A program made the position numbers and the translations under genes. The notes beneath the pieces were generated by a model. That model was given only the letters and a program-made list of their open reading frames with translations, searched no databases and was not told where the DNA came from. Shown here piece by piece: positions 15 to 515 of a stretch of 937 nt of DNA. The DNA lies in sequence record M16226.1. One strand, given 5' to 3'. The stretch's first letter is position 1, and each line of letters opens with the position of its first letter. The stretch comes from a phage.

Positions 15-128
15 ATGAAACGATGGTTTAATCACTGGTATAAACGGTTTTTAGTACGGCATCGCAAGTCTAGACAGCAAGATGATTGGCGGGAAATGGC
101 AAAGCGTAACAATTGCCCACTTCTCTGA
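15..128 (+). CDS. Short ORF encoding a 37-aa strongly basic peptide (MKRWFNHWYKRFLVRHRKSRQQDDWREMAKRNNCPLL); alternatively the C-terminal end of a longer CDS that begins upstream of the window
   Basis: ATG at 15-17 is preceded by a purine-rich Shine-Dalgarno-like GAGGGGG (4-10) with a short spacer; TGA stop at 126-128; a strand-specific intrinsic terminator follows 7 nt later. The frame has no stop between position 3 and the ATG, so an upstream start cannot be excluded. Absent from the supplied ORF track, presumably below its length cutoff. No homolog recognised from memory. Confidence 0.3.
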   Translation: MKRWFNHWYKRFLVRHRKSRQQDDWREMAKRNNCPLL

Positions 129-403: not shown

Positions 404-515
404 CCGTTTTTAAATACGAATCATTATCATTCGTATTCCGCTTTTAAATGAGAATCATTATCATTTGCATTTCACTTTTTAAATGAGATTGATTCTCATT
501 ATCATTCGCATTCAG
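404..515. repeat. Three tandem ~35-bp AT-rich direct repeats; candidate DNA-unwinding element
   Basis: The unit is approximately CG(C)TTTTAAAT-RMG-AATCATTATCATT-YGYATTYC. The TTTTAAAT cores end at 415, 449 and 484 (periods 34 and 35 bp); the ATCATTATCATT cores are at 420-431, 454-465 and 496-506 (copy 3 has a ~6-bp insertion). Each core matches the Fur-box 19-mer GATAATGATAATCATTATC at 13-15 of 19 positions. Confidence 0.6.

Follow-up and report, generated by a model that had tools for sequence, protein, structure and literature searches.

Predicted Fur-operator-like repeats beside LexA and DnaA boxes in the injection-stop region of bacteriophage T5

Fur-like repeats in a known phage region

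The 937 bp of sequence record M16226.1 (hereafter the window, i.e., the whole stretch of DNA that was analysed) belong to the injection-stop region of bacteriophage T5 and carry, between positions 407 and 515, three AT-rich tandem repeats whose cores resemble operators of the host metal regulator Fur at the level of true sites. Next to them lie a LexA SOS box and four DnaA boxes. Taken together, the 250 bp at 270–515 carry consensus-grade predicted sites for three host DNA-binding proteins: LexA, DnaA and Fur. The repeats themselves have already been catalogued; their reading as an array of Fur operators and the LexA box appear to be new.

The two-step injection of T5 DNA has been known since the 1960s and the pause between the steps is still unsolved. 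According to a paper from 2023, precisely where the injection stop lies is undetermined in most phages, and the literature places the transfer stop of T5 (at 7.9% of the genome) in this region by position only, the palindromes of the region having long been proposed as the stop signal. The region, called 'Repeat Region 3', was found to be highly conserved in a comparison of 25 T5-like phages (Davison 2020), which also described its DnaA boxes and remarked on its likeness to oriC. In the model proposed there, membrane-bound DnaA at the DnaA boxes halts injection, a stop that proceeds without new protein synthesis. Neither 'Fur' nor 'LexA' occurs in the text of Davison 2020 and the searchable literature, which describes repeats, palindromes and DnaA boxes only, contains no report of a Fur array or LexA box here, a remark in Heusterspreute 1987 or Wang 2005 being possible. 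A Fur-like array beside LexA and DnaA boxes makes the T5 injection pause testable through host proteins.

Identity and anatomy of the repeats

The window aligns end to end with T5 9140–10149 (926 of the 937 bases identical), and these coordinates are exactly those under which the left terminal repeat has the annotated feature 'injection stop signal (iss)'. Relative to T5, the window has 11 substitutions, one 3-bp indel and, within the array, a deletion of 70 bp (T5 9583–9652, at window 443/444). The deletion takes out copy 2 of direct repeat C together with some partial units. The three AT-rich units of the window are copies 1, 3 and 4 of direct repeat C of the T5 injection-stop region, and the copy number of this array varies between the window and T5. 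The window is also the entire source record, and the 70-bp gap may reflect an older stand-alone sequence or a natural or cloning deletion.

The injection-stop region is non-coding and, within the left terminal repeat, lies at the inner end, with 500–670 bp between the array and the boundary of this repeat (10219), which is flanked by copies of direct repeat D. Since the window lies within the terminal repeat, a second copy of it lies about 0.5–0.7 kb from the right genome end of T5. First-step-transfer DNA has an estimated shear point (9618 in AY587007) that corresponds to about position 488 of the window, inside the third unit.

An earlier note, made from the letters of the window alone, had described three tandem AT-rich repeats of about 35 bp, and this description holds. 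A profile search places the units, all on the plus strand, at 407–441 (unit 1, T5 copy 1, with palindrome E at 413–437), 442–475 (unit 2, T5 copy 3) and 477–515 (unit 3, T5 copy 4, with one extra hexamer). Tandem Repeats Finder reports a period-34 array of 2.9 copies (407–507), and a repeat search gives three copies spaced by 34 and 35 bp. The units are 34–41 bp long. Their Fur-like sites had also been called phased; the units are tandem, but a spacing of 34–35 bp is not in helical phase. As for the core AATCATTATC that had been attributed to every repeat, only the first two copies contain it, the third reading TCTCATTATC after a 6-bp insertion.

Seventeen T5-like loci served to deduce the anatomy of the unit: besides the window and T5, these were 15 loci from Tequintavirus, Epseptimavirus, Sugarlandvirus and phages of Enterobacter and Pantoea. 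Over these loci, the pattern is xxA-AAT-GNG-AAT-x-ATT-NTC-ATT-YGC, in which the AAT/ATT triplets are near-invariant and kept in a 6-bp register, the intervening triplets vary and the central base x is free. Length differences between units amount to 6 or 12 bp, and there are also half-units. From 21 distinct units, the consensus TTAAATGCGAATCATTATCATTCGCATT was obtained. The skeleton of the unit, AAT-N3-AAT-N-ATT-N3-ATT-N3-ATT, reads as the F-F-x-R-R architecture of a Fur operator.

Resemblance to Fur operators

Models of the Fur operator include the hexamer of Escolar, the 7-1-7 model of Baichoo and Helmann and the clusters of Chen et al. 2007. A position weight matrix (PWM) was built from ten natural iron boxes of Gram-negative bacteria, taken from PMC10665472, and made symmetric. 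It detects Fur-like sites at 410–428 (14.1 bits) and 416–434 (10.7 bits) in unit 1, at 444–462 (20.2 bits) and 450–468 (18.9 bits) in unit 2, and at 479–497 (11.7 bits), 485–503 (20.3 bits) and 491–509 (13.3 bits) in unit 3. The matches thus fall in sets exactly 6 bp apart (410/416, 444/450 and 479/485/491), and Fur site clusters were reported to show a 3/6-bp signature with overlapping dimers bound 6 bp apart (Chen et al. 2007). True iron boxes held out one at a time from the matrix score 2.7–23 bits, a range that includes the best scores of the array (18.9–20.3 bits). Removal of the two training sites that contain GAGAAT still leaves scores of 19.1, 19.1 and 18.9 bits.

The counts given in the earlier note against the Fur consensus GATAATGATAATCATTATC are exact (13/19 at 410–428, 15/19 at 444–462 and 15/19 at 485–503), and the minus strand of 485–503 reaches 16/19. 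The 7-1-7 pattern TGATAATNATTATCA with at most three mismatches gives four matches versus 0.07 expected, including a 14/15 match in the core of unit 2 (449–463, TGAGAATCATTATCA), while the triplet skeleton AATNNNAATNATTNNNATT with at most one mismatch gives five matches versus 0.02 expected. Positions 447–461 (AATGAGAATCATTAT) share a 15-base identity with the published iron box GATAATGAGAATCATTATT. When the profile of the 21 units is compared with the Fur profile, the correlation is r = 0.59 at offset 0 and 0.60 at offset 6, weaker at offsets 3, 9 and 12, and at most 0.16 elsewhere.

The note had left it to a comparison with AT-matched shuffled sequence whether the resemblance is more than base composition, and had itself named AT-richness as the more conservative reading. 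The comparison goes the other way. Dinucleotide shuffles of 404–515 reach a mean maximum of 7.7 bits (P = 0.0018 for a maximum of at least 18.9 bits), and shuffles of the single units give P = 0.0085, 0.0001 and 0.0003. Five positions of T5 1–62000 score at least 18 bits, three of them in these repeats, and the maximum in 190 other windows of T5 1–62000 with a GC content of at most 0.30 is 15.3 bits. Because both the shuffles and natural AT-rich T5 DNA score lower than the best sites of the repeats, AT-richness is not the explanation.

The only other cluster of at least 18 bits in T5 1–62000 lies at T5 228–252 and is a 7-1-7 Fur box without mismatch (TGATAATCATTATCA, scoring 21.0 and 19.7 bits), i.e., about 230 bp from the left genome end, in the 3' part of dmp. 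It may merely reflect the coding of an acidic tail.

Occurrence of the motif in bacteria

The 19-mer AATGAGAATNATTMTCATT, of which positions 447–465 of the window are an exact instance, was scanned over one genome per bacterial species and yielded at least 120 bacterial instances. Among the matches listed, 77 of 82 sites (80 loci) are located outside any open reading frame (ORF) of at least 200 amino acids, and many are AT islands inside genomes of 60–68% GC. Thirty flanking genes point away from the 19-mer, and at least 17 of them have metal or iron uptake functions: six TonB-dependent receptors, two Peripla_BP_2 proteins, one FecCD, two FecI-like sigma factors, one PepSY_TM, three Fe3+-type binding proteins and two members of the ZnuA/SitA family. 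As many of these sites adjoin iron-uptake genes, the core of the T5 repeats belongs to a class of motifs that bacteria use as Fur operators.

Conservation in T5-like phages and spread beyond

Of the 16 other T5-like loci, 15 have Fur-like sites of at least 12 bits in their array, mostly in 6-bp pairs. Several T5-like phages carry in addition, about 330–370 bp upstream of copy 2 of direct repeat B, a lone palindrome TCAAATGAGAATCATTCTCATTTGA that reaches up to 17/19 and 22.7 bits and is absent from T5 and from the window.

The motif is not confined to this group. In the Phapecoctavirus ESCO13, a stretch of 800 bp devoid of ORFs holds three to four Fur-like units that score up to 23.2 bits, and Pseudomonas phage PsgM04F carries the same module. 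No protein encoded by the flanks of these modules was found in common with T5 1–62000 by tblastx. Both phages are unrelated 150-kb myoviruses, in which the units are followed by different iterons and then by a tail of the type 'GGGATTTTTGAGATAAT...AGATTTGAG' that resembles positions 885–937 of the window (direct repeat A).

A scan of viral contigs for the motif yielded at least 120 contigs, and only four of the 120 loci listed are T5-like. Among the matches listed, at least three separate Fur-like clusters fall inside 400 nt in 16 non-T5 loci; some of these arrays include 18/19 boxes and one has a (GAGAAT)x7 run at the start of a 41-kb contig. Such dense near-consensus arrays in unrelated viral contigs often adjoin iteron-like repeats. 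Under their internal labels, they are located at L143 5700–5960, L164 4030–4290, L191 20–380 (the (GAGAAT)x7 run), L196 5780–6000, L250 150–480, L254 2940–3260 and L163 2540–2830, with others in L209, L211 and L218. In 7 of the 11 independent lineages with informative neighbours, the array has a large terminase gene no more than 2.5 kb away, a proximity that is suggestive only, short viral contigs being biased to hallmark genes. By comparison, homologues of the T5 protein A2 were detected only in T5-like genomes, of the size of Demerecviridae. Since the motif also occurs outside T5-like phages, a host protein would be the simplest common factor.

LexA, DnaA and iteron sites around the array

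The near-perfect LexA SOS box TACTGTATAAATATACAGTA, annotated only as palindrome D, is an AT-rich 20-bp palindrome at 270–289 and matches 19 of 20 positions of the SOS-box consensus. No match occurred in 200 shuffles. Each of the 16 other T5-like loci has the box at the same offset (18–19/20), with phiR201 carrying it twice. Downstream, the two 23-bp copies of direct repeat B (297–319 and 358–380) contain two DnaA boxes each on the minus strand, at 298–306 (TTATCCCCA) and 310–318 (TTATCAACA) and at 359–367 (TTATCAACA) and 371–379 (TTATCCACA). A scan for DnaA boxes with at most one mismatch gives 10 matches versus 2.2 expected. Boxes of the LexA and DnaA types are also kept in two distant relatives, Vibrio phage Chloris and Proteus phage 1. 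In the former (230–330 of the locus), tandem repeats of the CTTCTATCCATCCAGA type lie between the iterons and the LexA/DnaA boxes; in the latter (2320–2500 of the locus), the place of direct repeat C is held by 46-bp units with AGTGATTATCATTACT.

On the other side of the array, six iterons of direct repeat D (TGTGCRAATCCGAC) start at 543, 589, 615, 646, 727 and 752 on the plus strand (span 543–766). Among the T5-like phages of enterobacteria that were sampled they are almost invariant, and a Vibrio relative has them in rearranged form. The motif TGCRAATC is common to these iterons and to the left arm of direct repeat C. Four of them hold, on the minus strand (543–551, 589–597, 646–654 and 727–735), the sequence ATTTGCACA, which departs from the relaxed DnaA-box consensus TTWTNCACA at a single position.

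The right border of the array is formed by the GC-rich palindrome J (520–540, the palindrome itself at 520–537), just past which the major 7.9% single-strand nick is located (about 539–540). The nick maps to TGCGCT (535–540), with the Fur-like array directly on one side and the first iteron on the other, and fits the annotated nick consensus Pu-pGCGC. The annotation of AY587007 lists in this region palindrome D, two copies of direct repeat B, four copies of direct repeat C with palindromes E–I, palindrome J, the major 7.9% nick, nine copies of direct repeat D and direct repeat A. The first element of the window from the left is a terminator-like hairpin, and the last is a G-rich tail that holds two or three short repeats.

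Several other identities were considered for the window and rejected. Its ORFs are short and overlapping, all of at most 80 amino acids, no coding sequence is annotated here in the RefSeq entry of T5, and the length of the indel that separates the window from T5, 70 bp, is not divisible by 3; a coding function was discarded. An RNA element was discarded as well, the only Rfam match being mir-1252 (E = 0.35, well under its threshold). A megablast against 72,556 plasmids gave no match, which does away with an origin of a plasmid or iteron replicon.

Possible function and alternative explanations

If host proteins are involved, the following model can be drawn. Host Fe2+-Fur would bind as two or three dimers per unit, on overlapping sites 6 bp apart. 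Fur, LexA and DnaA, already in the cell at phage arrival, would cover the trailing end of the first-step DNA. The resulting complex would pause or anchor the DNA, in an extension of Davison's DnaA model; alternatively, it would act at the nearby genome terminus during packaging. A complex of pre-existing host proteins needs no new synthesis and would therefore fit what is required of the injection stop. The steps of this model do not carry the same weight. Binding of Fur to this DNA in vitro is to be expected with good confidence. The whole explanation, in which a platform of host proteins with Fur on the repeats would contribute to pausing or anchoring or to genome-end handling, is tentative and falls a little short of probable; its most speculative part is the role of the complex, i.e., pausing or anchoring versus genome-end handling. 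A broader proposal seems unlikely as it stands: Fur-box arrays would be a recurrent non-coding module near genome ends or packaging genes, in which Fur might serve as an architectural or iron-sensing cofactor, comparable to IHF at lambda cos, and, with LexA and DnaA, might constitute the T5 injection stop signal. Its scope would take in Phapecoctavirus and the T5-like phages and, beyond them, no fewer than seven viral lineages that have a terminase gene within 2.5 kb. Were arrays near phage termini general, this would be a new phage use of a host metal regulator; should Fur fail to bind, the finding would shrink to an already catalogued repeat.

Several observations weigh against the model. 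The T5 annotation has no ORF downstream of the array on either strand, and promoter-like matches are not more numerous than in shuffles, the single match (478–505) being weak. With no downstream gene and no convincing promoter, the array is not a conventional Fur-regulated operator. The commonest hexamers of the units are GCGAAT and GAGAAT rather than GATAAT, and the outer GCG/CGC arms, which are not needed for Fur recognition, are fairly conserved and change in pairs (ACG/CGT versus GCG/CGC). The array of Enterobacter phage KKP_3711 is without any Fur match of at least 12 bits, the iss-equivalent region of Vibrio phage Chloris has unrelated repeats and no Fur-like match, and the units of Proteus phage 1 have diverged to about 14 bits. 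The weakest step is the link with pausing, as proteins that bind DNA inside the cell would be expected to aid its entry and not to stop it. Finally, the region 400–540 has a single-strand fold of -29.3 kcal/mol versus -10.9 ± 2.4 for shuffles (z = -7.7), which would favour a role of DNA structure.

Some of these points would also fit if the repeats were operators for a dimeric protein of the phage or its virion (the DNA-binding pre-early protein A2, the small terminase subunit or another) reading AAATGCGAAT...ATTCGCATTT, the likeness to Fur sites being a coincidence or a mimicry. Such a protein could account for the conservation of the GCG/CGC arms outside the Fur consensus and for the TGCRAATC motif that the repeats have in common with the strongly conserved direct repeat D iterons. 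Its co-evolution with its sites would also fit the finding that the array is the fastest-changing part of the module, as seen in Chloris and Proteus phage 1, both of which keep LexA and DnaA boxes. This alternative is nevertheless rather improbable, as the motif is present in Phapecoctavirus and many unrelated viral contigs whereas A2 homologues were detected in T5-like genomes only, the flanks of the ESCO13 module encode no protein homologous to those of T5 1–62000, and the exact 19-mer marks promoters of bacterial iron-uptake genes. Since the injection stop occurs without new protein synthesis, A2 cannot be its cause, although it could act at the restart. A search of Pfam for a recognizable DNA-binding family in A2 or A1 gave no match. 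A role of DNA structure, in which palindromes E–I would form hairpins, cruciforms or a bend that impedes translocation or marks a processing site without any specific protein, agrees with the stable fold and with the long-standing proposal that the palindromes are the stop signal. The arms 413–424/426–437 and 447–466/481–500 are 90–92% complementary, and in three lineages the perfect 9-bp stem of unit 1 is kept via paired changes. Taken singly, however, units 2 and 3 make poor palindromes, and it is not pairing that is invariant but the AAT/ATT triplets with their 6-bp register. Template switching can keep palindromic arms alike without selection. The incoming T5 DNA is linear and nicked, and thus lacks the supercoiling for cruciform extrusion. 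A purely structural element is accordingly regarded as an unlikely explanation.

The earlier note had placed the repeats in a putative origin, where Fur-like sites could mean an iron-responsive occupancy of the unwinding region, and more conservatively took them for AT-rich unwinding repeats analogous to the 13-mers. The layout does resemble an origin: the GC content drops to 0.27–0.32 at 391–510 versus 0.38–0.57 in the flanks, four DnaA boxes lie immediately upstream and six iterons downstream, in line with the likeness to oriC noted by Davison. This region is, however, the T5 injection stop. The replication origins of T5 lie near the centre of its genome, according to the mapping literature reviewed in Davison 2020, and its replication genes are outside the cell during first-step transfer. 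The window has no adjacent initiator gene and no plasmid homologue, and the 13-mer consensus GATCTNTTNTTTT with at most two mismatches is absent from the repeats. Furthermore, a melting element has no need of a strict 6-bp palindromic register with a free central base. An unwinding element of a replication origin is thus very unlikely, and the analysis gives no basis for an iron-responsive occupancy of it. The least credible explanation, to which hardly any weight can be given, is that the match arose by chance in repeated AT-rich DNA, or that the repeats are generic sites for IHF or Fis. The region is indeed AT-rich and repetitive and its three copies are not independent events. Shuffles of single units rarely reach the observed scores (P = 0.0001–0.0085), other AT-rich T5 windows remain at or below 15.3 bits, and the sites are kept in 15 of 16 relatives. 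The IHF consensus WATCAANNNNTTR with at most one mismatch has no match in the whole window versus two expected, and the only match to the Fis consensus GNNYAWWWWWTRNNC in the window (104–118) is outside the repeats, so that the IHF/Fis reading offered in the note finds no support.

Comparison with known systems

Earlier accounts of the T5 injection-stop repeats are reportedly those of Heusterspreute 1987 and Wang 2005 (annotation AY587007). The array analysed here is the same DNA as T5 direct repeat C with palindromes E–I (AY587007) and lies between direct repeat B and the group formed by palindrome J, the nick and direct repeat D; compared with the T5 array, the window is without T5 9583–9652, i.e., copy 2 and partial units.

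Like iteron plasmid origins and oriC, the region presents DnaA boxes, then an AT-rich array and then iterons. It differs from them in having no initiator gene, plasmid homologue or 13-mer consensus, and the T5 origins are located elsewhere.

A second likeness is with cosB of phage lambda, where sites of the small terminase subunit are interspersed with an IHF site next to the cut site. Both are non-coding clusters of protein sites, predicted ones in T5, near a genome terminus. In T5, the predicted host factor would be Fur and not IHF, the terminase genes are not adjacent, and the likeness is one of sequence layout: phage-specific repeats (direct repeat D) are combined with predicted host-factor sites, and some Fur-like arrays of other phages lie beside terminase genes.

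The closest parallel in the architecture of the sites themselves is with enterobacterial Fur operators such as those of aerobactin (iucA), fepB and entS, which, like the array, consist of clustered overlapping sites with a 6-bp-phased F-F-x-R-R arrangement. The array differs from these operators in that it overlaps no promoter, has no gene to regulate and uses GCGAAT/GAGAAT hexamers. It also differs in its setting, as it strings together three to six tandem predicted operators in the terminal repeat of a lytic phage.

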